DNA of 62,665 nt from assembly GCA_964441145.1 (NCBI GenBank), contig CAYTUB010000004.1:1-62665 (forward strand), read 5' to 3'. The notes under the pieces are model-generated. The model was not told the DNA's origin. It worked only from the letters and a program-made list of their open reading frames with translations, and searched no databases. Every line of letters begins with the position of its first letter. The stretch's first letter is position 1. The position numbers and the translations under genes were made by a program. The stretch is from an uncultured Acidimicrobiales bacterium (GTDB taxonomy: Bacteria > Actinomycetota > Acidimicrobiia > Acidimicrobiales > SHLQ01). Shown here in pieces: positions 2,523 to 15,396 of the stretch.

Positions 2523-3824
2523 ATGGGCGCGGGACATTCGCACGGCCACAGCCACGACCATGAACTTCCCGGTGGCGGCTGGGAACACTGGCTGGGTTCG
2601 CCGCGGCTACGCGGCGTGCTCGGCATCCTCGTCGTGGCCTTCATCGGCGCAGTTATTGGATTGTTCGTGCTGTGGCCCACGGGCGAAGGCCGAGTCGCCG
2701 CCCTCGATGCCGCCGACGAAGTGGGGCTTGCAACCGATCGGGTCCGTGCCGACATCGTCAGCTCTGCGACTCAGGAGTGTTCCTTTGCAACACCGGAGCG
2801 CCCGGTGCAGTGCCGGTTGCTCAACCTCGACATTCTCGAAGGCCCTGACGCCGGTTCGGTCATTGCTCTGCCCGAGATCAACTTAGATATCGAGCGCGGC
2901 CTGCCCGAGTTTGATCCCGGCGACCGGGTCATCCTCGGGTACGCTCCGCCAACCGATACGTACTTCTACGAAGACGTCGAGCGTTCGAACACGCTGATCA
3001 TTCTCACCGTCATCTTCGTGGTGGTCGTGATCGCTTTCGCCCGTGTGCGCGGCATTCTGGCGCTCATCGCCATGGCTGCCACAGTGGCCGTGCTTGTCGG
3101 ATTCGTCGCGCCCAGCGTGCTCGACGGCAATGACCCGGTGGCCGTCGCGATCGTCGCGGCCATCGTGATCGCGTTCGTGAGCCTCTTCCTTACCCACGGC
3201 TTCACGCCCACCACTGCGGTTGCGCTCGCCGGAACCCTGTCCGCGCTTGGGCTGACTTTGGTGTTGTCCTGGGTCTTCTTTGGTCTCGCGGGGTTCAACG
3301 GCTTCGCCGATGGCGAAGCGCTGCTGCTCCCGATCCTTGCTCCGGATCTGCGGGTGAGCTCGCTCCTTCTCGGCGGTGCGGTCATCGGCGCACTCGGCGC
3401 GCTCGACGACGTCACGGTCACGCAAGTCGCAACAGTTGCCGAGCTCCGCCGAAACAACGCGTCGATGCCAGCCAGCGAACTGATCGCTTCGGGCATTCGA
3501 GTCGGACGCGACCACATTGCCGCCACGGTCAACACCTTGCTGCTCGCCTACGCCGGCGCCAGCCTTCCGATCCTGTTGCTGTTTGCAGCGTCGGATCAAT
3601 CGCTCGGCATCGTCGCCAACTCTGAGGTGGTCGCCGTCGAAATCGCCCGAACGTTGTGCGGATCGATCGGGCTGATCGCTGCCGTTCCCTTTACGACGGG
3701 TCTGGCGGCAGGGGTGCTTCCTCCAACCGAGGCGGAACCTGACTCTGCGTCGTCGCAGAATGCTGACCCTGCGCTACGGGACGGTCCGAGTTGGGATGAC
3801 TTTGCTCCCGACGATCCGCAGTAG
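2523..3824 (+). CDS. YibE/F-like multi-pass membrane protein with His-rich N-terminus
   Basis: The ATG at 2523 gives MGAGHSHGHSHDHE..., followed by many hydrophobic helices with a YibE/F-like layout. The ORF-track start at 2391 overlaps ung and is less likely. Confidence 0.7.
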   Translation: MGAGHSHGHSHDHELPGGGWEHWLGSPRLRGVLGILVVAFIGAVIGLFVLWPTGEGRVAALDAADEVGLATDRVRADIVSSATQECSFATPERPVQCRLLNLDILEGPDAGSVIALPEINLDIERGLPEFDPGDRVILGYAPPTDTYFYEDVERSNTLIILTVIFVVVVIAFARVRGILALIAMAATVAVLVGFVAPSVLDGNDPVAVAIVAAIVIAFVSLFLTHGFTPTTAVALAGTLSALGLTLVLSWVFFGLAGFNGFADGEALLLPILAPDLRVSSLLLGGAVIGALGALDDVTVTQVATVAELRRNNASMPASELIASGIRVGRDHIAATVNTLLLAYAGASLPILLLFAASDQSLGIVANSEVVAVEIARTLCGSIGLIAAVPFTTGLAAGVLPPTEAEPDSASSQNADPALRDGPSWDDFAPDDPQ

Positions 3825-4695
3825 CAGATCTCTCTTGGGAGGCGCGGAGTTCGCCTCGCACCACGAAGACCAAGGCGAGCCAGATCCATGCAAACCCGAG
3901 CAGTCGGGCTGCCGTTACCTCTTCACCAAAGAGCTGCCATCCCACCAGGAACTGCAGGGTTGGGTTGATGTATTGCAGCAACCCAACCGCCGTTAGTGAC
4001 ACGGTCCGAGCTGCCGAGGCAAACAAGAGTAACGGGACGATGGTGACGAACCCGGTTGCGACGATGAGCGCCATTGTCGTGACTTCCCCGTCGCCCAACA
4101 CCTCGGTGCCGCCGCCTGCTCGCCACAGCACCAGTCCAACGACGAACGGGCCAACGAGTGACATTTCAAACGTGAGGCCGTCGACGCTGTTCCAGGGCCC
4201 AACCTTTCGAGCCCAGCCATAGAGCGCGAAGCTCGACCCGAGCGCGAGCGCTACCCATGGCACGGCGCCGATCACCACGAAGGTCCACACCAAGCCAATG
4301 GTCGCAAGCCCTAGGGCGATTCGTTGGTTAGTGCTCAGTCGCTCGCCGAGCGCAAGAACCCCGAGCGCTACCGACATCAATGGCATTAGGAAATAGCCGA
4401 GAGCTGCTTCCACGGCTTGGTCGTTGTCGATCGCCCAAAGAAAGACCGCCCAGTTCACGGCGATGAGAAAGGCAGACAGCGCCCCGAACCACATATGACG
4501 AGGGGTCAGCTCAGCAAAGGGATGGTTTCTGCGAGCCAACGACCACACCAGCAAGAACAGCGCGCCAAAGCCCACCCGGAATCCCAGTTGATCGACAGGC
4601 GCCACCGTGTCGAGGGCACGCCAAAAGATCGCGGAGAGCCCCCACCACGAATACGCGAGGATCACAAAGATCACCGCACGGCGCGAATTGTTCAC
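3691..4695 (-). CDS. rarD: EamA/DMT-family transporter, RarD-like
   Basis: Ten-helix hydrophobic profile and an N-terminus VIFVILAYSWWGLSAIFWRAL typical of RarD/EamA. The GTG start at 4695 overlaps the upstream stop by 1 nt. The low-complexity C-terminal tail overlaps the convergent gene. Confidence 0.72.
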   Translation of the reverse strand: MNNSRRAVIFVILAYSWWGLSAIFWRALDTVAPVDQLGFRVGFGALFLLVWSLARRNHPFAELTPRHMWFGALSAFLIAVNWAVFLWAIDNDQAVEAALGYFLMPLMSVALGVLALGERLSTNQRIALGLATIGLVWTFVVIGAVPWVALALGSSFALYGWARKVGPWNSVDGLTFEMSLVGPFVVGLVLWRAGGGTEVLGDGEVTTMALIVATGFVTIVPLLLFASAARTVSLTAVGLLQYINPTLQFLVGWQLFGEEVTAARLLGFAWIWLALVFVVRGELRASQERSATADRREQSHPNSDRPVAQGQHSATTQSQVPPRLEEAPLPPDPS

Positions 4696-5375
4696 TACGC
4701 CCGCTCCCCCAGCTCAAGTTGACGACACTCTCGATTGCCCCAACGCTTGCAGACCTCGGCCACGGGCTCCAATGTCGAGCGGAAAAGGTCGTATTCGTCG
4801 TCGAAGCAGTGATACTCGCCACCGGGGTCTCGAGCATCGGTGATTCGGGTTCGGGCGTCGACCGCGGCGCATTCAGCCCAGGCTTCGGTTCCCAGGCCAC
4901 CTTTTCGATCGTCGGCCGATGGCTCCCACAGCGCGAAGTCGAGAAGATGCCCGATTTCGTGGTCGATCAACTCGTCGAGGCGATCCTCATTCCAGGGGCG
5001 AAAGTCCAGGGTGATGACTCCATCAGGCGGGTTGTTGGTAACAAACGCGCCCACGTTGGGCCGCTCGATATCGGAGAGGACGATGTCTTCGACGAGCCAT
5101 CCCAGAGGCGAGTCGTTCACCTCCGCCCATGCAGCCGCTTCGATTTCTGCCGGGGTGCGAAAGTCGGGGCTGGTCGCCACGCTGTCGGCCAACGTCAACA
5201 CGCCCCCGAGCGCCATGGCCGACGCGACGAAGAGCCCGAGCAACCTCGGAGCGCGTCCCATCCGTTGGCTGCGCGGAGGCAGCGGTTCGCTTTGCCCACC
5301 AAAGAGCTCTTCGAACTCCTCCTCGGTGAACATGTCGTCGTCGCCATCGGGCGCACTTGTTGGGATCTCACTCAT
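4695..5375 (-). CDS. Membrane-anchored zincin-like (HExxH) protein, function unknown
   Basis: Acidic N-terminus, one TM helix (LLGLFVASAMALGGVLTL), an extracytoplasmic domain with HEIGH and four Cys. The ATG at 5375 forms an ATGA overlap with the ligD-pol stop. Confidence 0.55.
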   Translation of the reverse strand: MSEIPTSAPDGDDDMFTEEEFEELFGGQSEPLPPRSQRMGRAPRLLGLFVASAMALGGVLTLADSVATSPDFRTPAEIEAAAWAEVNDSPLGWLVEDIVLSDIERPNVGAFVTNNPPDGVITLDFRPWNEDRLDELIDHEIGHLLDFALWEPSADDRKGGLGTEAWAECAAVDARTRITDARDPGGEYHCFDDEYDLFRSTLEPVAEVCKRWGNRECRQLELGERA

Positions 5376-6277
5376 TGGCCGACCGGCAATGTTTGTTCGA
5401 GCGTGGGGACCTCTTCCCAAAGGTCACCCACATCTGCGACCCGATCGAGAACGTCAGCGGACTCAAACCCCAGCCACTCTCCATCGGCGCCGTCGCTCAC
5501 TTCATCCCAGGTGATCGGCGTCGACACGGTCGGGCGCTCCTTGCCCCGGAGCGAATAGGGGGCAATCGTCGTCTTGTGCCGGGTGTTTTGGCTCCAGTCG
5601 ATGAAGATCTTCCCATTCCGTTCTTTGCGCGCCATGTTCGACGTCACGTCAGCCGGTCTTTGCTGTTCGAGCAACTGCGCGACGGCGAGCGCGAAATCAG
5701 AAGCATGACTGTGGGTGTGCGGTGTATTGAGTGGCACATAGAGCTGCAAGCCCTTCGAGCCAGAGGTCTTGGCGAAGCTGCGCAGCCCGACGGTCTCTAA
5801 CACCTCCGCGATCGAGAGAGCGACCTGGCAACACTCGACCACCGTGGCGGGCTCGCCGGGATCGAGGTCAAAGACGACGATGGTGGGCGACTCGATATCG
5901 ACACATCGCGCCATCGGAGCGTGGATTTCGAGAGCCGCCAGATTTGCCGACCATGCGAGAGCTGCTACCTCTGACAGCACCGGATACTCGATGCCCTTGC
6001 CCTTGTCTCCGGGGCCAACGCACGTGCTCACCCAATCAGGGCGATGACCAGGGGCTCGCTTGTTGAAGAACGGCTCCGCGGTTACACCATCGGGCCACCG
6101 CTTGAAGGTGATCCCTCGGTCGGCAATGTGGGGCAACATTGCCGAGGCGATGCTCACGTAGTACTCGATGACCTGCCCCTTCGTGAACCCCACCATGGGG
6201 TACAGCACCTTCTCCAGATTCGTTACCTTCAGCGTCCGACCGGCAATCTCGGTGCGAATAGGAACGGGGGTAGCCAC
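5372..6277 (-). CDS. ligD: NHEJ polymerase/primase domain protein (stand-alone LigD PolDom)
   Basis: 301 aa with LKVTNLEKVLYP, FDLDP, SGSKGLQLYVPL and IDWSQN, the archaeo-eukaryotic primase-type LigD polymerase motifs. No ligase or phosphoesterase domain is attached. Confidence 0.88.
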   Translation of the reverse strand: MATPVPIRTEIAGRTLKVTNLEKVLYPMVGFTKGQVIEYYVSIASAMLPHIADRGITFKRWPDGVTAEPFFNKRAPGHRPDWVSTCVGPGDKGKGIEYPVLSEVAALAWSANLAALEIHAPMARCVDIESPTIVVFDLDPGEPATVVECCQVALSIAEVLETVGLRSFAKTSGSKGLQLYVPLNTPHTHSHASDFALAVAQLLEQQRPADVTSNMARKERNGKIFIDWSQNTRHKTTIAPYSLRGKERPTVSTPITWDEVSDGADGEWLGFESADVLDRVADVGDLWEEVPTLEQTLPVGQ

Positions 6278-6348
6278 CCACCAAACCGTATCTTCAACAC
6301 GGCGTGGGCGGCTAGCGGCCGATTGCAGCGGGCTGCAATCGGATGGGG

Positions 6349-7275
6349 CTAGGAGGCTTTCTTGACCTTCTTGGCTGCGGCCTTCTTCTTCGTGGTTGCT
6401 TTCGCCGCCTTGGCCTTCTTTGCTGGAGCCTTCTTCTTGGCTGCCGGCTTCTTGGCCTTGGCTTTCTTCGCCGTTGGGTGACGAGTGCGAGCCTGTTTGG
6501 CCGCGGCGACCGATGCTTCGAGGGCTGCCATCAGGTCAACTACCGACCCGACCTCTTCCTCATCGACTGGCGCAGCGACGGTTTCCTCGCCCGCCGCCTT
6601 GCGGTCGATCAGCCCGAGCACGGCCTCGCGATAGGTATCGGTGTGTTTCTCGGGCGCGAAGTCAGCTTCGAGCGACGAGATGAGTTGCCGGGCCATGTCG
6701 ACTTCTTTGTCGGCGATCTCGATGTCGTCGAGCCCATCGAAGAGTTCCACTTCGGCCGGTGCGACGATCTCGTCGGCGTACACCATCGTCGACAACACGA
6801 GCTTTCCGTCGACTGGCCGGATCGCCGCCAGATACTGCTTTGTCCGCATGACGAAGCGGGCGATACCGACCTTGCCCGCTTCTTCCATTGCGGTGACGAG
6901 CAGCTTGTAGGGCTTTTGCGTATCGGCACTCGGCGCCAAGTAATAGGCGGCGTCATAAAAGACTGGGTCGATGTCGGCCAGGTCGACGAACTCTTCGAGG
7001 TCGATGGTTTTGGCAGCAGCCGGATCGAGTGCGTCGAGTTCGGCGGGAGTGATCGTGACGTATTCGCCGTTGGCGAGCTCGTAGCCCTTGACGATGTCTT
7101 CGTAGGCGACCTCTTCTCCGGTGACCGCGGAAACCCGCTTCTGTTTGATGCGACCTCCGGTCGCGGCCTCGAGTTGATTGAAGCGCACGTTCTTGCGACT
7201 TACCGCGCTGAAGAGCTTCACAGGGATGTTCACCAACCCGAAGCTCACCGAGCCAGACCAAATAGGACGTGCCAT
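6349..7275 (-). CDS. ku: Ku DNA end-binding protein with Lys/Ala-rich C-terminal tail
   Basis: N-terminus MARPIWSGSVSFGLVNIPVKLFSA is canonical bacterial Ku. The C-terminus is a KKAKAKKPAAKKK-type basic tail. Confidence 0.93.
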   Translation of the reverse strand: MARPIWSGSVSFGLVNIPVKLFSAVSRKNVRFNQLEAATGGRIKQKRVSAVTGEEVAYEDIVKGYELANGEYVTITPAELDALDPAAAKTIDLEEFVDLADIDPVFYDAAYYLAPSADTQKPYKLLVTAMEEAGKVGIARFVMRTKQYLAAIRPVDGKLVLSTMVYADEIVAPAEVELFDGLDDIEIADKEVDMARQLISSLEADFAPEKHTDTYREAVLGLIDRKAAGEETVAAPVDEEEVGSVVDLMAALEASVAAAKQARTRHPTAKKAKAKKPAAKKKAPAKKAKAAKATTKKKAAAKKVKKAS

Positions 7276-7347
7276 ATCTCAAGTATCGGACATTCTGGCG
7301 TTCCTGTGAAATGACGGTGTTAAATGAACGCCTCATAGACTTGCGCA

Positions 7348-8202
7348 GTGATCGCTCTCGACGCCGCCACCGTCATGATCCAATGGGCTACCGGTGGGCT
7401 TGCGTTTCTCTGGATAACCACGCGCACCCGAACCGTTGGTCTCGGCTATGGCTGGCTGCAACGCGTCACGTTCATCACCTTTGGGATCATCGCCCTCGTC
7501 ATTGCCTTCTACACCCGCTGGGTCCCCGTTCGAGACATCGCGAACGTCTTGATGATCCTCGCCAGCAGTGTCGCCCTGTGGGTGTCGGTCGCCCGCAAGT
7601 CCGCGGGAGTCAAGGGTCAACGTGAAGTGATCGAACGTCGGTCGCGGCGGATCGCAGAGATGACCGGCATCGACAAGGAAGAAGAGCGCTTCGATAAGAA
7701 CGCCCCAGAATTTCCACCGGTTCTCGACGCCATCGCTCCCGTCTTTGGCCTGATCGCGGTGATCGCCGCCGGTGTTGACGCTGCCGACCCGGCGTGGCTC
7801 GGTGTGGTTCGCATCACGGTCGGCGCCTTCTTCCTCGGAGCGGTCAGTGACGCCATGTTGCTCGGCCACTGGTACCTGGTGCAGCCTGGCCTAAGCCGCC
7901 AACCACTCAACGAACTCGTCCGCTGGACCACAGCGCTCTGGCCTTTCGAACTGATCGTGCTGTTGATCCCCACCGGCATGTGGTCGGTGTTGAACGGCAC
8001 GATCGACGATGGCTTTGCCGGCCAGCTGGGATGGTTCTGGGCCGCGTCGAGCGTCGCCACGATCATTCTGCTCGGGCTCACGATCGTCATCTTGCGTGGC
8101 AAGGAGTACTCGGCGGTCATGGCGGCGACCGGCATGTTGTACCTGGCGATTCTGATGGCCTTCAGCATGGACCTCGTCGCCCGAGCCACGTTGCGAATCT
8201 GA
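7348..8202 (+). CDS. Polytopic membrane protein, unknown function
   Basis: 284-aa ORF from a GTG at 7348 with about 7-8 hydrophobic helices. The antisense ORFs are R/P/S-rich shadows. Confidence 0.6.
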   Translation: MIALDAATVMIQWATGGLAFLWITTRTRTVGLGYGWLQRVTFITFGIIALVIAFYTRWVPVRDIANVLMILASSVALWVSVARKSAGVKGQREVIERRSRRIAEMTGIDKEEERFDKNAPEFPPVLDAIAPVFGLIAVIAAGVDAADPAWLGVVRITVGAFFLGAVSDAMLLGHWYLVQPGLSRQPLNELVRWTTALWPFELIVLLIPTGMWSVLNGTIDDGFAGQLGWFWAASSVATIILLGLTIVILRGKEYSAVMAATGMLYLAILMAFSMDLVARATLRI

Positions 8203-8308
8203 ACCCGGCTGCATCTAACCACGACTGCATATAGGTCCGGCTGTCCAGCAGCATCGCTGACCTGAATGCCCGGTCAAGGCCATCCGCGAAATCGCCGACA
8301 ATACGGCC

Positions 8309-9121
8309 ATGTTGATGTTTCGGCGTTTCTGGTTGTCAACACTTCTGCTTCTCGGCGCGTGCTCGCCAAATTCTGAAATAGGTTCGCCAACCGCTCCATC
8401 TGGCGAAGACCCTCAACAGATCGCTATCCCCACGCCCACCACGCCCAACCAAGACATCGACGAAACGGTCCCCACCTCCCAAGAAACCGAGTTTGAAAGG
8501 CCCCCAAACTCGTTCGACACAACCATCTTCTTGCACGCCGATTCCGACGATGAAGCGTTCGAATCCGTTCGCGAAATCATCGGCCAGGTTGAGGACATTG
8601 CCTTTGTCGACCAGCAAGAGACCTATCTCGAATACATCGGGTTCTTCCCCGACGCCGCTGACACAGCGTCGCCAGAAGACATGCCGCCATCCTTTCGCGT
8701 TTCGCCTCGGGTATCGGCAGAGACGAGAGCCTCATTAGATGCCCATCCCGCCGTACGCCACATCGTGGAACCGACAATGCCAACGCTCGCAGAGGTTCGG
8801 CGCGAGCTCCGCTGGGCCAACGACCCTAGAAAGGACCTCAGCATCATCTACCTGCATGCAACCGTCGGGCCCGAGGAGGCGCAGCTTGTTCGAGACATCA
8901 TTGGCCCCTCGCTACCGGGGGTCTATTTCGTGGATCAAGAAGAGACGTATCGCGAGTTCACTTTCCTTAATGAGGGAGATCCCGCAACGCCCTCTTTGAC
9001 GGTTGACCTCATGCCACCCTCATGGAGGGTAGATCTCGACGGGGCCTCGCTACCTCCCGAACTCCAAGCGAAACTCGAAGCCAATGAGTTTGTTCGCAGC
9101 ATCACCAATGCGCAGAGTTGA
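8309..9121 (+). CDS. Lipoprotein with two FtsX-extracellular-domain-like repeats
   Basis: Lipobox LLLGAC. There are two internal modules (TIFLHAD...ETYLEYIGFF...MPPSFRVSP and IIYLHAT...ETYREFTFL...MPPSWRVDL) that resemble the FtsX periplasmic domain. Confidence 0.55.
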   Translation: MLMFRRFWLSTLLLLGACSPNSEIGSPTAPSGEDPQQIAIPTPTTPNQDIDETVPTSQETEFERPPNSFDTTIFLHADSDDEAFESVREIIGQVEDIAFVDQQETYLEYIGFFPDAADTASPEDMPPSFRVSPRVSAETRASLDAHPAVRHIVEPTMPTLAEVRRELRWANDPRKDLSIIYLHATVGPEEAQLVRDIIGPSLPGVYFVDQEETYREFTFLNEGDPATPSLTVDLMPPSWRVDLDGASLPPELQAKLEANEFVRSITNAQS

Positions 9122-9373
9122 ATGCCTCGGCAACAACTAGGTACTTGAGCAACAAAGACAATGCCCACATTGTTGACCAGGCACGCCGGGTTCCCCAGCT
9201 GATCACCTTGTTTGGTCGGGTAGCTGACATTTGCCCAGCGTCGCACACCGGCTACCTACGCCTATTTCGCAGTCCTGGTAGCTTTGCCAGTCACGGCAGC
9301 AGCGATGCCAAATTGTCGCAGCAAGCAATCCGCCCGTTACCCCCTGTCCCGTTACCCCTATAAGGATCACGAC

Positions 9374-9937: not shown

Positions 9938-10094
9938 CTCTTTCTGTCGAGGAATCTGGCTACACACATCGCCAGCGACAACGACTGATCCTAGAGCGTG
10001 CCCTGTCATCGCTCGGATCGAGATAGCAGGGTGACGCTCAGGCTTAAACGCACCTTTGGCGATCCTGTCATAGTCGTCACATACGATTGCAGTT

Positions 10095-10508
10095 ATGAAT
10101 CGGCGAGACCTTCAAGACCTGAGCAAACTCAGGCTGAAAGAGGCGAGAGTTCTCCTTAGCGCGCAGCATTGGTCTGGCGCCTACTACCTCGCTGGCTACG
10201 CTGCGGAATGCGCCATCAAAGCCTGTATCGCGAAGAAGACTATGCGTGGGGACTTTCCGAATAAGGGATTCGCGAATCAGGTACACACCCACGATGTCGT
10301 CGCACTGGTTAAAGCCGCTGGCCTACAGTCACAGCTTGACCAACGGATAAAAGACCCAGGAACGTTCGCCGTCAACTGGACTATCGTTAAGGACTGGGAC
10401 GTCAGTTCTCGTTACACCACAGCAAGCGAATCAGAAGCAAGAGATTTGTTGAGCGCCCTAACCGCCCGCAAGGAAGGAGTCATACCGTGGATCAAGCAAC
10501 ATTGGTAG
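10095..10508 (+). CDS. HEPN-domain-like protein
   Basis: 137 aa. It shows a HEPN-type helical pattern: AYYLAGYAAECAIKACIAKK, VHTHDVVALVKAAGL, and SSRYT..SESEARDLLSAL. I found no canonical Rx4-6H motif. G+C is visibly lower than in the flanks. Confidence 0.6.
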   Translation: MNRRDLQDLSKLRLKEARVLLSAQHWSGAYYLAGYAAECAIKACIAKKTMRGDFPNKGFANQVHTHDVVALVKAAGLQSQLDQRIKDPGTFAVNWTIVKDWDVSSRYTTASESEARDLLSALTARKEGVIPWIKQHW

Positions 10509-10924
10509 GCCGCCTTGAACGAGCCGGCGAACAACTCACGGCCAAACTACGCGACGATCCGAGCTTCGATCTAACCGCATCATTCTGGTGGTGGAACTCG
10601 GAATCGTCCGCATGGCTTCTAGTCATTGCATCGAAGAATTACGAACGGCTCGGCCCTAAATCCACCTATCAGCACGTTCGACGTCTATTGAAGAAACTGG
10701 ATACGAAGCGCTCGAGGTCACCCCTAGACCTCAGCATGATCAGTGCAGTATCTGCAACTGACCCACGGGTTGCCGCTATGGCATCAGCAATATCAGTTTC
10801 GTCCGGGCACACCCGCGTCACTCGATCGAACCTAAATGGTGTCCAGGTTGACGATGCGCTGATATACGAGCTGTCGCTTGCCGGGGTCAGTTCAGATGCC
10901 GCCGAGATCCCGGCATCGGCCTAG
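10487..10924 (+). CDS. Unknown protein translationally coupled to the HEPN-like gene
   Basis: 145 aa. The GTG at 10487 is preceded by AAGGAAGGAGT about 7 nt upstream and overlaps the HEPN gene by 22 nt. No recognisable motif, and no G[SG]...DxD of minimal nucleotidyltransferases. Confidence 0.6.
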   Translation: MDQATLVGRLERAGEQLTAKLRDDPSFDLTASFWWWNSESSAWLLVIASKNYERLGPKSTYQHVRRLLKKLDTKRSRSPLDLSMISAVSATDPRVAAMASAISVSSGHTRVTRSNLNGVQVDDALIYELSLAGVSSDAAEIPASA

Positions 10925-11015
10925 CGGTTCACCAGACGCGACAAACCCAGAGAGTCCCAGGCGTCACACCCGCTAGGGCATACATCCAGGTAGGTCAGGG
11001 TTCACACTTGTAACT

Positions 11016-12787: not shown

Positions 12788-13447
12788 GTGCGCTTAGTCA
12801 TCGCCAGATGCACCGTCGACTATGACGGCAGACTCACCGCCCATCTTCCCGAGGCGACCCGCCTCATCATGGTGAAGGCGGACGGTTGCGTCGCCGTGCA
12901 CGCAGACGGCGGTGCGTACAAGCCTCTCAATTGGATGAACGCGCCCAATCGCCTCATCGAAGATGGATCCGAATGGCGCGTGGTGAGCCCCAAGGGCGAA
13001 ACACTCACCATCACGCTTCACGAAGTGCTCAGCGACACGAGTTGGGACCTCGGTATCGACCCCGGGCTACAAAAAGATGGCGTCGAAGCACATATTCAAG
13101 AACTGCTGGCCGCCGACCCCGAAGCCATCTCCAGCGGCTACAAGCTCGTACGCCGCGAATACCCAACCGATATCGGGCCTGTCGACCTACTCTGCCGAGA
13201 TGAACAAGACGGCGTCATCGCCATCGAGGTAAAGCGCCGCGGAGAGATCGATGGCGTCGAACAGCTCAGCCGCTATCTCGAGTTCCTCAACCAGGACCCA
13301 CGACTCTCACCGGTTAAGGGTGTCTTCGTTGCCCAAGAGATCAAGCCACAGGCAAAGGTTCTCGCCGGCGAACGCTCCATCGAGTGCGTGGAAGTTGACT
13401 ACGACGAGCTGCGGGGGATCGAACGCCCGCAGTTGAAGTTGCTATGA
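12788..13447 (+). CDS. nucS: Endonuclease NucS (EndoMS)
   Basis: [35 protein letters not shown] and the C-terminal RecB-like DLLCRD...[11 protein letters not shown] start at 12788. Confidence 0.93.
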
Positions 13448-15396
13448 CCTCGCAACTCCGCTCTCGTTTCATCCCCGGCGCGTTGATCGCCGCAGTGCTC
13501 TTGACGGGCTGTGGCGTCTTTGGCGACGACGACCAGGCCGCCAGCGAACAAGCTGCTCCGGCTGTGGCCGAGGTCGTGCGCGTCGAGAGCGGCGACCGCT
13601 GGTTCGACATCGATCCCTCAGAGGTCGATTTGTCTGCAAGCGGCGGACCAACCGCGGCGACTATCGAGCAACTCAGCCAGGAAGTCGACAATCTCTCCCT
13701 GACGCTTTCTGCACCGGCCGACGCTGGCATCGTGCACGATGGCGCGACCTTCGTTGTCCAGCCAGCGGTTCCAGGACAAACACCAGACATCGAAACGCTG
13801 GCGCTCAACATCGCCGAAGCAGCCGAAACCGGTATCGAAACGGTGGAGATCCCCTTTTCCGACCTCGCTGCTGATCTAGGCGATGAGGCTGCAGCCGAGT
13901 ACGCCGCAGAGCTCAACGGTCGGCTCGCCGATGGCATCACCGTTGCGATAGCTGGCGAGACCGCGGTCTTGTCGAACGAGCTTCTCGGCCCGGCAACGAC
14001 GGTGAGTTTCTCCGGAAACCAATGGGACGCGGCAATCGACTTCGAACAACTCGATGCAGTACTCGCTCGCATGTTCCCCGATGTCGGCCAACCCGGCGGC
14101 GAGGCGACCATCACCATCGAAGAGTCCGACGACCCTGACGTTCCCGGAACGGTCGTCATCGTTCCCGGAACACCACAAACCGTGTGCTGCGATGCCGAAT
14201 CGGCTCGCCGTCTCGAACAGGCGCTGACATCTGATGTCGAAGTTGCGACGTTGCTGTTCCGTGAGGAAGAGGGCGAACGTGGCACGGCCTGGGCCGAAGA
14301 ACTCGGCATCGAAGAGCGCGTCTCAACATTCACGACGAACTACACCCCCGGCCAAGATCGCAACACCAACATTCGCCTGATCGCTGAACTGAGCCAGGGT
14401 GTCATTTTGATGCCTGGCGAAGCGTTCTCGCTCAACGAACACGTCGGGCAACGAACCAGGGAGAAGGGTTTCGTTCCGGCGGGAACCATCGTGAACGGCC
14501 ACCTCGTCGACAGCGTCGGCGGCGGTATCAGCCAGTTCGCCACCACCTTGTTCAACGCTGCGTTCTTTGGCGGGCTCGAGTTCGATGCCTACCAGGCGCA
14601 CTCGATCTACTTCAGCCGGTATCCCTACGGCCGCGAGGCGACGATCTCGTGGCCAGCGCCAGCACTGATCATCTCGAATCCAACCCCCTATCCCGTCATG
14701 ATCTGGCCGACGAGCACCTCTAGCTCGGTGACCGTGGATCTGTACTCGACGCCATGGGTTGAGGTCGAGCAGACAGGCCAGTTCGAGAGCGTGGTCGGCG
14801 TCGCGTGCACCCGAGTCGTCACCGAACGAACCCGAACGTTTATCGACGACAACTCCACCGACGTCGACACCGTCTTTGCCACATACCGCCCCGAGGGCAT
14901 CGCCTGCGATGGCACGGAGACCGACGACCCCGATGCCGAACAGATCGAAGCGCTCGAGAACGGTGAGGACCCTGGCTTCGAAGACGGCAACCCAGCCGAC
15001 GAAGAAGGCGGCGACGGTGAAGCACCCGGAGACGGAAATGGCCAGAATCCTGACGGCGACGACGATCCAGACGCCGAAGACCCAGACGGCGATGACCCGA
15101 ATCCTGATCCCGGAGACGGCGACAACCCCGATGACGGCGGCGACGGTGAAGCACCCGGAGGCGGAAATGGTGATCCCGGTGACGGTGACGATGGCGACGG
15201 CGGAAATCCCGATCCCGGAGACACGGATAACCCCGGCGGACAGCAACCCGACGGACAAGATGACGACACCGCTGATCCGCCCCCACCGGCTGATGATGAC
15301 GATGCTCCGGTTGCCCCCGAAACACCTCCGGCGACCGAGCCCGAGGACGCAGCGCCAGACGACACCGGTTCACCCGACGACGACCAAGCTGGCTGA
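13444..15396 (+). CDS. VanW-domain lipoprotein with long D/P/G-rich acidic tail
   Basis: Lipobox LLTGCG. VanW core [14 protein letters not shown]...[21 protein letters not shown]...[11 protein letters not shown]. About 170 aa of acidic low-complexity C-terminus. ATGA overlap with nucS. Confidence 0.85.

Follow-up and report, generated by a model that had tools for sequence, protein, structure and literature searches.

In a 62,665-nucleotide (nt) stretch of DNA from an uncultured Acidimicrobiales bacterium (GenBank assembly GCA_964441145.1, contig CAYTUB010000004.1, positions 1 to 62,665; hereafter the window), we found that two small overlapping genes are one copy of a large, ancient and strictly syntenic two-gene family. 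The first gene encodes a HEPN protein and the second a protein of an unnamed family, here called the partner. We put the probability at roughly 0.55 that the pair is an autonomous, horizontally mobile conflict module of the toxin-antitoxin or abortive-infection type, in which a non-enzymatic protein partner would restrain a HEPN nuclease. The original prediction, made from the letters of the window, had proposed a toxin-antitoxin or defence pair, and this is the best available reading. The features of the locus are as follows.

10095-10508, + strand: HEPN gene (gene 1), ATG start, 137 aa; predicted effector or toxin, with all family-invariant residues intact.
10487-10924, + strand: partner gene (gene 2), GTG start, 145 aa; unnamed family, predicted antitoxin, inhibitor or sensor.
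10474-10480, + strand: Shine-Dalgarno sequence AAGGAGT of the partner, 6 nt before the GTG and inside the HEPN Gly128-Val129 codons.
10487-10508, + strand: dual-coding overlap of 22 nt; the partner start codon lies on the HEPN Trp132 codon, and partner Leu6-Val7 lie over Trp137 and the stop codon.
10290-10292, + strand: His66 codon, candidate "alternative" catalytic histidine; 100% conserved and fitting the description of AbiV/AF0298-type HEPN proteins.
10410-10415, + strand: Arg106-Tyr107 codons; the Arg is the R of the HEPN motif, with no His 4-6 residues after it.
9938-10094, + strand: upstream intergenic region, presumed promoter; no element was identified in it.
10925-11015, + strand: downstream spacer, with a synteny breakpoint at about 10985 relative to the closest UbiB-bearing relatives (tblastx of the relatives against the window).

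Both open reading frames (ORFs) were re-read at the predicted coordinates with the predicted 22-nt overlap, and the AAGGAGT Shine-Dalgarno sequence was present, as proposed, before the GTG and within the first gene. By script, 58 of 88 related loci were found to share this 22-nt overlap, and an in-frame start codon at -22 is present in most of the others as well. The overlap was seen in E. coli copies as well, and a few loci use a 7-nt overlap instead, placed at the Trp137 codon. Across loci, the partner start codon is built on the codon of the invariant HEPN Trp132 (N-TGG), a GGNGT sequence is conserved at the Gly128-Val129 codons where the partner Shine-Dalgarno sequence sits, and the conserved partner residues Leu6-Val7 are read over HEPN Trp137 and its stop codon. 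The 22-nt overlap is not a product of chance, and its retention together with the Shine-Dalgarno sequence across related loci supports the proposal of an obligate operon, one that is translationally coupled.

We then scanned a HEPN alignment against species-representative genomes, which gave at least 570 relatives, and kept 80 loci for examination. These span many bacterial phyla and several archaea. In every one of the 80, hidden Markov models (HMMs) of both families placed the partner directly downstream of the HEPN gene and on its strand. The same arrangement was observed at 4 loci reached via individual homologues, in all 41 HEPN-positive viral or phage contigs, on two plasmids and in E. 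coli, which makes 138 loci in total, all of them with the partner directly 3' of the HEPN gene. The converse, raised at the outset as the question whether partner homologues always neighbour HEPN genes, also holds for the three most divergent partners that could be traced: at 21-28% identity to the window partner, all three are preceded by a HEPN-like gene and overlap it by the usual 22 nt. The two proteins co-evolve: a mirror-tree comparison over 100 loci gave r=0.84 (Mantel p=0.001), and the partner diverges faster (mean pairwise identity 29%, against 47% for HEPN), which accounts for its orphan look and its want of annotation.

The two proteins also occur in joined and extended forms. The metagenomic protein P0260 (261 aa) carries the HEPN and partner domains in a single chain, with the junction precisely where the two genes normally overlap; either a natural fusion or a frameshift artefact could account for it. 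On plasmid NZ_CP140099.1 of Deinococcus sp. AB2017081 (locus L092, 5381-6763), the partner domain (residues 1-125) is followed by a C-terminal region of ~335 aa annotated as DUF3800, a domain mentioned in the literature as retron- and CRISPR-associated. Partners with unrelated C-terminal extensions that match no family were found in six further cases (P0139, P0201, L008, L040, L065 and L086). At locus L043, a second and partial partner copy (6350-6541, HMM positions 2-65) lies just downstream of a complete pair.

The distribution of the pair is that of a mobile element. It was detected in 40 IMG/VR viral contigs and one Klebsiella phage, and a 13.9-kb Acinetobacter plasmid carries it beside a BrnT/BrnA module. 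Megablast of the Klebsiella-phage pair against E. coli returned nothing; a more distant search mode found the pair in 190 of 5,426 complete E. coli genomes (3.5%). The E. coli pair consists of WP_001038620.1 (HEPN) and WP_000520499.1 (partner) in NZ_CP101274.1 (L217, 9001-9797) and NZ_CP041422.1 (L218), and at both of these inspected loci it lies between the O/P/ren replication genes and ybcN-ninE-rusA-Q, which is the ren-nin region of a lambdoid prophage. To judge from these occurrences, the pair is horizontally mobile. With at least 570 HEPN relatives, 815 partner clusters and copies in 190 E. coli genomes, phages and plasmids, the view of it as a new local pair had to be given up.

The surroundings of the pair were equally varied. 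Among the immediate neighbours in the 80 genomes, 154 Pfam families were counted, none more than 4 times, and most of them are housekeeping families. Many upstream ORFs of ~470 aa were considered as a recurrent third gene and rejected, as clustering showed them to be unrelated housekeeping genes conserved only within lineages. The pair is autonomous, since no third gene recurs among its neighbours, and some lineages hold it at a conserved chromosomal position. One locus, L008, lies among restriction and helicase genes. At another, L011 (5049-5742), the pair is directly preceded by a canonical MNT gene with a HepT-like (PF01934) gene after it, which places two different HEPN modules side by side; this MNT gene, part of a separate MNT-HepT pair, is the only one near this HEPN clade among all fetched loci.

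The partner at first looked like an orphan. A word-indexed homology search returned 2 relatives only, at 99% and 65% identity. That appearance was misleading: when 1.84 billion cluster representatives were searched exhaustively with HMMER, 815 partner proteins were recovered at E<=1e-3, typically of 125-135 aa, and the relatives are labelled "hypothetical" in every source. The window partner matched nothing in Pfam, NCBIfam or PADLOC and no PDB sequence, and none of 86 family members matched a Pfam (including NTP_transf_2), NCBIfam or PADLOC model. A PDB sequence profile search with the partner gave spurious Kelch-repeat matches to a Trp-rich hairpin only. The profile that does cover the family is phrog_5760, of unknown function, which was matched over the full length by 78 of the 86 members and by the window partner at E=1.1e-7 (positions 15-132 of a 133-position profile). 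The original claim that the partner belongs to no recognised family and lacks the G[SG]...DxD motif was borne out, with no curated family and no such motif found.

Conservation in the 86-member alignment is mostly structural (W34, W43, G14, G56, Y61 and Y127), and the conserved charged positions are restricted to E39 (D/E in 96%), R110 (83%) and D123 (87%). AlphaFold2 with a 3-sequence alignment gave a poor model (predicted local distance difference test, pLDDT, 62), and the model built with the 86-sequence alignment was used instead (pLDDT 91, predicted template modelling score 0.83). The predicted order of elements is alpha1-beta1-beta2-alpha-alpha-beta3-alpha-beta4-beta5, with residues 130-145 of the window protein forming a low-confidence tail.

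The gene 1 product, in turn, belongs to Pfam PF05168 ("HEPN-T"), with a score of 28.1 bits against a cut-off of 22 over residues 12-117, in agreement with the prediction of a HEPN-like protein. Many of its homologues, of which at least 155 of about 137 aa were collected, carry a precomputed PF05168 match. It also matched the PADLOC model PDC-M28A nearly over its full length (E=3e-12), as did the plasmid copies. PF05168 was the sole Pfam model matched, and PF01934 (HepT/DUF86) was not matched by the window protein; the family profile found no match among PDB sequences. The AbiV model TIGR04498 scored 14.6 bits against a cut-off of 27 (E=0.031) and aligned to residues 14-50 only.

Twelve residues were 100% conserved in 100 non-redundant HEPN sequences: R13, E38, C39, K42, C44, H66, W95, W101, R106, Y107, G128 and W132. 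An Rx4-6H motif starting at R106 was present in 1 of the 100 sequences only, so the canonical RNase site is absent, as originally stated; the protein is not simply motif-less, however, for H66 and R106 are invariant and suggest an alternative site. According to a 2013 survey of HEPN proteins (PMC3710099), AbiV and AF0298-type PF05168 HEPNs keep the motif Arg, lack the motif His and possess a second conserved His N-terminal to it, from which the authors proposed an alternative active site. The retained motif Arg and conserved N-terminal His of that description correspond here to R106 and H66, and this HEPN clade has the AbiV/AF0298-type "alternative histidine" arrangement. AbiV is an active, rRNA-degrading toxin according to a 2026 review (PMC13064643); since it has the same type of site, the missing Rx4-6H motif does not imply an inactive HEPN. 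We infer that the HEPN protein is an RNase effector that would arrest growth when free.

These results suggest the following mode of action. Coupled translation, through the 22-nt overlap and the embedded Shine-Dalgarno sequence, would lead to both proteins being made together. The partner would bind the HEPN protein and hold the nuclease inactive, much as protein antitoxins of the type II kind do. If the partner were lost or displaced, as might happen when a phage infects or the element disappears, the nuclease would be freed and would then cut RNA by means of R106 and H66 with E38, K42 and R13. A role in phage defence or in addiction may follow from such a release. The two small adjacent genes, their overlapping frames and their mobile, patchy distribution correspond to the generic description of type II toxin-antitoxin systems.

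The pattern of decay among the copies bears on toxicity. In-frame nonsense codons in the HEPN gene beside an intact partner were found in 5 of the 80 genomic copies (L018, L036, L037, L042 and L068), and the HEPN of L068 also lacks R106. In the relative with 65% identity (L001, L002 and L003; HEPN at L001 625-879), an in-frame 159-nt deletion has removed HEPN codons ~76-129 in three independent samples; it also removes the partner Shine-Dalgarno sequence and leaves the partner ORF intact. This bias towards inactivation of HEPN suggests that the protein is costly, as a toxin would be.

Several observations weigh against a toxin restrained by an antitoxin. The partner is frameshifted at L061 and truncated at L069, each beside an apparently intact HEPN gene, which would be unexpected if free HEPN is lethal, and these two counter-examples weaken the argument from decay; with 5-6 damaged HEPNs against 2 damaged partners, the numbers are small and the bias is not statistically compelling. 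None of the 86 partner family members contains a helix-turn-helix, ribbon-helix-helix, AbrB or similar DNA-binding domain, nor is one visible in the fold model, and most type II antitoxins have such a domain. The isoelectric point (pI) of the partner is not acidic, although the pI contrast between the two proteins is uninformative. The canonical RNase motif is absent, and HEPN could be a non-catalytic binding domain. The setting in defence islands that had been asked about is also unsupported, in that the immediate neighbours in the 80 genomes are mostly housekeeping genes.

A broader version of the proposal can be formulated, and we hold it only tentatively. Here the non-canonical HEPN RNase (H66/R106) would be restrained by a partner of undescribed fold that also acts as a fast-evolving sensor of infection. 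The partner domain would serve as a portable "HEPN-docking" unit, open to fusion with DUF3800, with unnamed extensions or with HEPN itself, and the pair would stand as the first example of a new abortive-infection or toxin-antitoxin family widespread in bacteria, archaea, plasmids and lambdoid prophages.

Comparison of the partner model with known structures bears on two other explanations. With Foldseek, neither the PDB nor BFVD contained a match at E below 1e-3, and BFVD yielded nothing useful. The top match was the MNT antitoxin of the Aphanizomenon HEPN-MNT complex (7ae9_G/7ae2_B; E=0.03, probability 0.80, template modelling (TM) score 0.39), whose chain identity was confirmed. BolA and ribosomal S3 KH-like folds came close behind, with target-normalised TM scores of up to 0.49.

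The main rival, to which we give a distinctly smaller but real chance, holds that HEPN alone is inert and that the partner, as a sensor, adaptor or specificity subunit, activates it or directs it to its target, for example on recognising a phage protein or on binding RNA through a KH/BolA-like surface. The much faster evolution of the partner is what would be expected of a sensor, and the fusion of its domain to varied C-terminal regions, DUF3800 among them, points the same way. The two loci with an intact HEPN beside a damaged partner are more easily accommodated if HEPN is harmless on its own, and the prophage-encoded HEPN defences HepS and Tha, which are activated by phage tail proteins, offer parallels. 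The Foldseek matches to BolA and KH-like folds also speak for it, although no match is significant, all E-values being above 0.01. An inhibitor would account equally well for the strict 1:1 translational coupling and for the natural fusion, and the HEPN nonsense alleles with an intact partner suggest that HEPN carries a cost.

A second and rather unlikely explanation is that the partner descends from an MNT and is catalytically dead, so that the pair would be a type VII HEPN-MNT system that has lost AMPylation and neutralises by binding alone. This mechanism is compatible with the restrained-nuclease model, and the explanation concerns the origin of the partner. In its favour, the best PDB match is an MNT antitoxin, PF05168-type HEPNs are classed as nucleotidyltransferase-associated (PMC3710099), and the alpha-beta-beta-alpha-beta-alpha order could derive from a minimal nucleotidyltransferase core. 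The TM score of that match is only 0.39, however, and BolA and KH-like folds do about as well. Alignment of the partner profile to an MNT alignment with hhalign gave a probability of 0.2%, although the MNT alignment is small (six sequences). Of 100 partners, 4 contain the G[SG]...[DE]x[DE] pattern, and not at a consistent position. In mntA-hepT the two genes stand in the opposite order, and the single MNT gene in all fetched loci belongs to a separate MNT-HepT pair. At the level of fold only, the partner may be the degenerate nucleotidyltransferase that had been suggested from the window: the nearest structure is indeed an MNT antitoxin, with a TM score on a par with those of BolA and KH-like folds, and neither the profile comparison nor the motifs point to an MNT. 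Neutralisation of the AMPylation type by the partner appears implausible, because the partner has neither nucleotidyltransferase motifs nor profile similarity to MNTs, although the HEPN does have an invariant tyrosine, Y107.

A non-conflict housekeeping role, as a nucleotide-binding or RNA-processing heterodimer with an inactive HEPN, is improbable: the missing Rx4-6H motif, the mostly housekeeping neighbours and the conserved chromosomal position in some lineages would suit it, and against it stand the patchy, transfer-shaped distribution, which takes in plasmids and phages and, in E. coli, only 3.5% of genomes, the foreign composition of the pair in the window and its absence from the closest relatives, the recurrence of pseudogenised copies, and the invariant E, K, H and R residues, which make little sense unless they belong to an active or binding site.

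For the toxin-antitoxin or abortive-infection module that we favour, the window locus itself provides evidence of transfer. The G+C content of the 830-bp pair is 54.7%, compared with 60.1% for the window, and falls in the lowest 2.4% of equal-sized sliding windows. G+C at third codon positions is 0.60 and 0.56 for the two genes, against 0.685 +/- 0.047 for 50 proxy genes (z = -1.9 and -2.7), and ATA, AAA and CTA codons are 5-8 fold commoner in the pair than in the rest of the window. The A/T-rich block with rare codons described earlier was found again in the low G+C and in the enrichment of ATA and AAA; TTA, which had been named with them, does not occur as an in-frame codon in either gene.

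In the closest UbiB-bearing relatives (76-82% identity), synteny with the window begins at ~10985 and continues through NucS and beyond, nothing upstream is shared, and the pair was present in 0 of 80 UbiB loci. The 65%-identical relative of the pair lies beside an unrelated gene, and its DNA similarity to the window is confined to 10096-10881, essentially the two coding sequences. A clean empty site was not found. The low G+C and rare codons, the break in synteny, the absence from the 80 UbiB-bearing loci and the restriction of similarity to the coding sequences support horizontal acquisition of the pair in the window, as had been proposed. The further proposal of an insertion between two core genes fits on one side only, in that UbiB-NucS is syntenic in relatives, while the other side is itself variable, with no such synteny for the DinB-like gene or for its upstream neighbours.

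In the flanks of the pair we found no tandem or direct repeat array, no operator-like repeat, no Rfam match and no terminator, and no sigma-70-like site was found in the upstream region 9938-10094. An imperfect 15-nt direct repeat (12/15 identical; 10067-10081 and 10954-10968) brackets the pair and is probably due to chance. Further upstream, comparison with the near-identical contig L004 covered window ~3800-8200, which holds Ku and LigD-type non-homologous end-joining genes as well as genes for an EamA transporter and a membrane protein and is non-syntenic with the closest UbiB-NucS relatives. Contig L004 lacks a ~1.1-kb segment, 8210-9350, that includes a gene (8309-9121) for a 270-aa lipoprotein-like protein with an FtsX_ECD match; it represents an indel polymorphism within the variable block that precedes the pair. 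Downstream, at 13444-15396, a 650-aa ORF combines an N-terminal part conserved among relatives with a long Asp/Pro/Gly/Glu-rich low-complexity C-terminal tail.

Bacterial immunity and toxin-antitoxin systems rely centrally on HEPN nucleases as effectors; Cas13, Csm6, HepT, RnlA, AbiV, Tha and HepS are examples. Here a HEPN clade with a non-canonical site is tied to an unnamed partner, and the two are found together in hundreds of species, archaea included, as well as on plasmids, in phages and in 3.5% of complete E. coli genomes. Should the partner prove to be an inhibitor or sensor with a new fold, it would represent a new control of HEPN besides MNT AMPylation, RNA antitoxins, RnlB or Ith, and the proposal, if true, would provide an annotation model for about 800 "hypothetical" protein clusters. 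Because E. coli carries a copy in its prophages, the hypothesis can be tested at little cost. As regards the window, the conserved UbiB-NucS block is immediately preceded by a variable spot, apparently acquired horizontally, which the pair marks.

We compared the pair with the HEPN-based systems nearest to it. In HEPN-MNT systems (HepT/MntA, type VII; Shewanella SO_3166/SO_3165, Aphanizomenon 7AE2/7AE9, Legionella), as here, two small co-directional genes encode a ~140-aa HEPN presumed to be an RNase toxin and a ~140-aa alpha/beta partner; both kinds of pair are widespread and mobile, and the best, weak, fold match of the present partner is an MNT antitoxin. In contrast to HEPN-MNT, the present HEPN belongs to PF05168, lacks Rx4-6H and is not HepT/DUF86 (PF01934), its partner shows neither MNT motifs nor profile similarity, and the order is reversed, with HEPN first and a 22-nt overlap.

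AbiV of Lactococcus and the AF0298-type HEPN-T proteins share the site variant, with the Arg kept, the His missing and a second invariant His towards the N-terminus (PMC3710099). The present HEPN differs from AbiV in falling below the TIGR04498 cut-off and in length (AbiV has 201 aa), and whereas the AbiV antitoxin is reportedly an RNA (type III), the partner here is a protein and no repeat RNA was found in the flanks. PDC-M28 in PADLOC is an untested phage-defence candidate (Payne et al. 2024 preprint), and the present HEPN matches its component A. Unlike PDC-M28, a three-gene cassette (FAM_01482>>FAM_02546>>FAM_01036), the pair has no third gene, and the partner and its fusions match no PADLOC model (0/86). 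The profile phrog_5760 represents the same family as the partner (78/86 match); it carries neither function nor name and confirms occurrence in phage genomes only. Literature searches aimed at PDC-M28 and at the E. coli accessions turned up no description of this pair and no paper that names the accessions, and these were absent from the part of the DefensePredictor supplements that was searched, so that prior validation is possible.

Tha/Ith of S. aureus and HepS of Salmonella Gifsy-1 resemble the E. coli copies in that their HEPNs are prophage accessory genes, HepS lying in a comparable lambdoid region, and Tha is restrained by a dedicated small protein inhibitor, Ith. HepS differs in being a solo protein with a canonical R100-H105 motif, and Ith in being encoded on the antisense strand and unrelated to the present partner. 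Taken together, these comparisons indicate that the pair is like HEPN-based toxin-antitoxin and abortive-infection systems and a member of none of those compared. It is not categorically new; what is new is the partner, an undescribed and unnamed family within a HEPN nuclease module.

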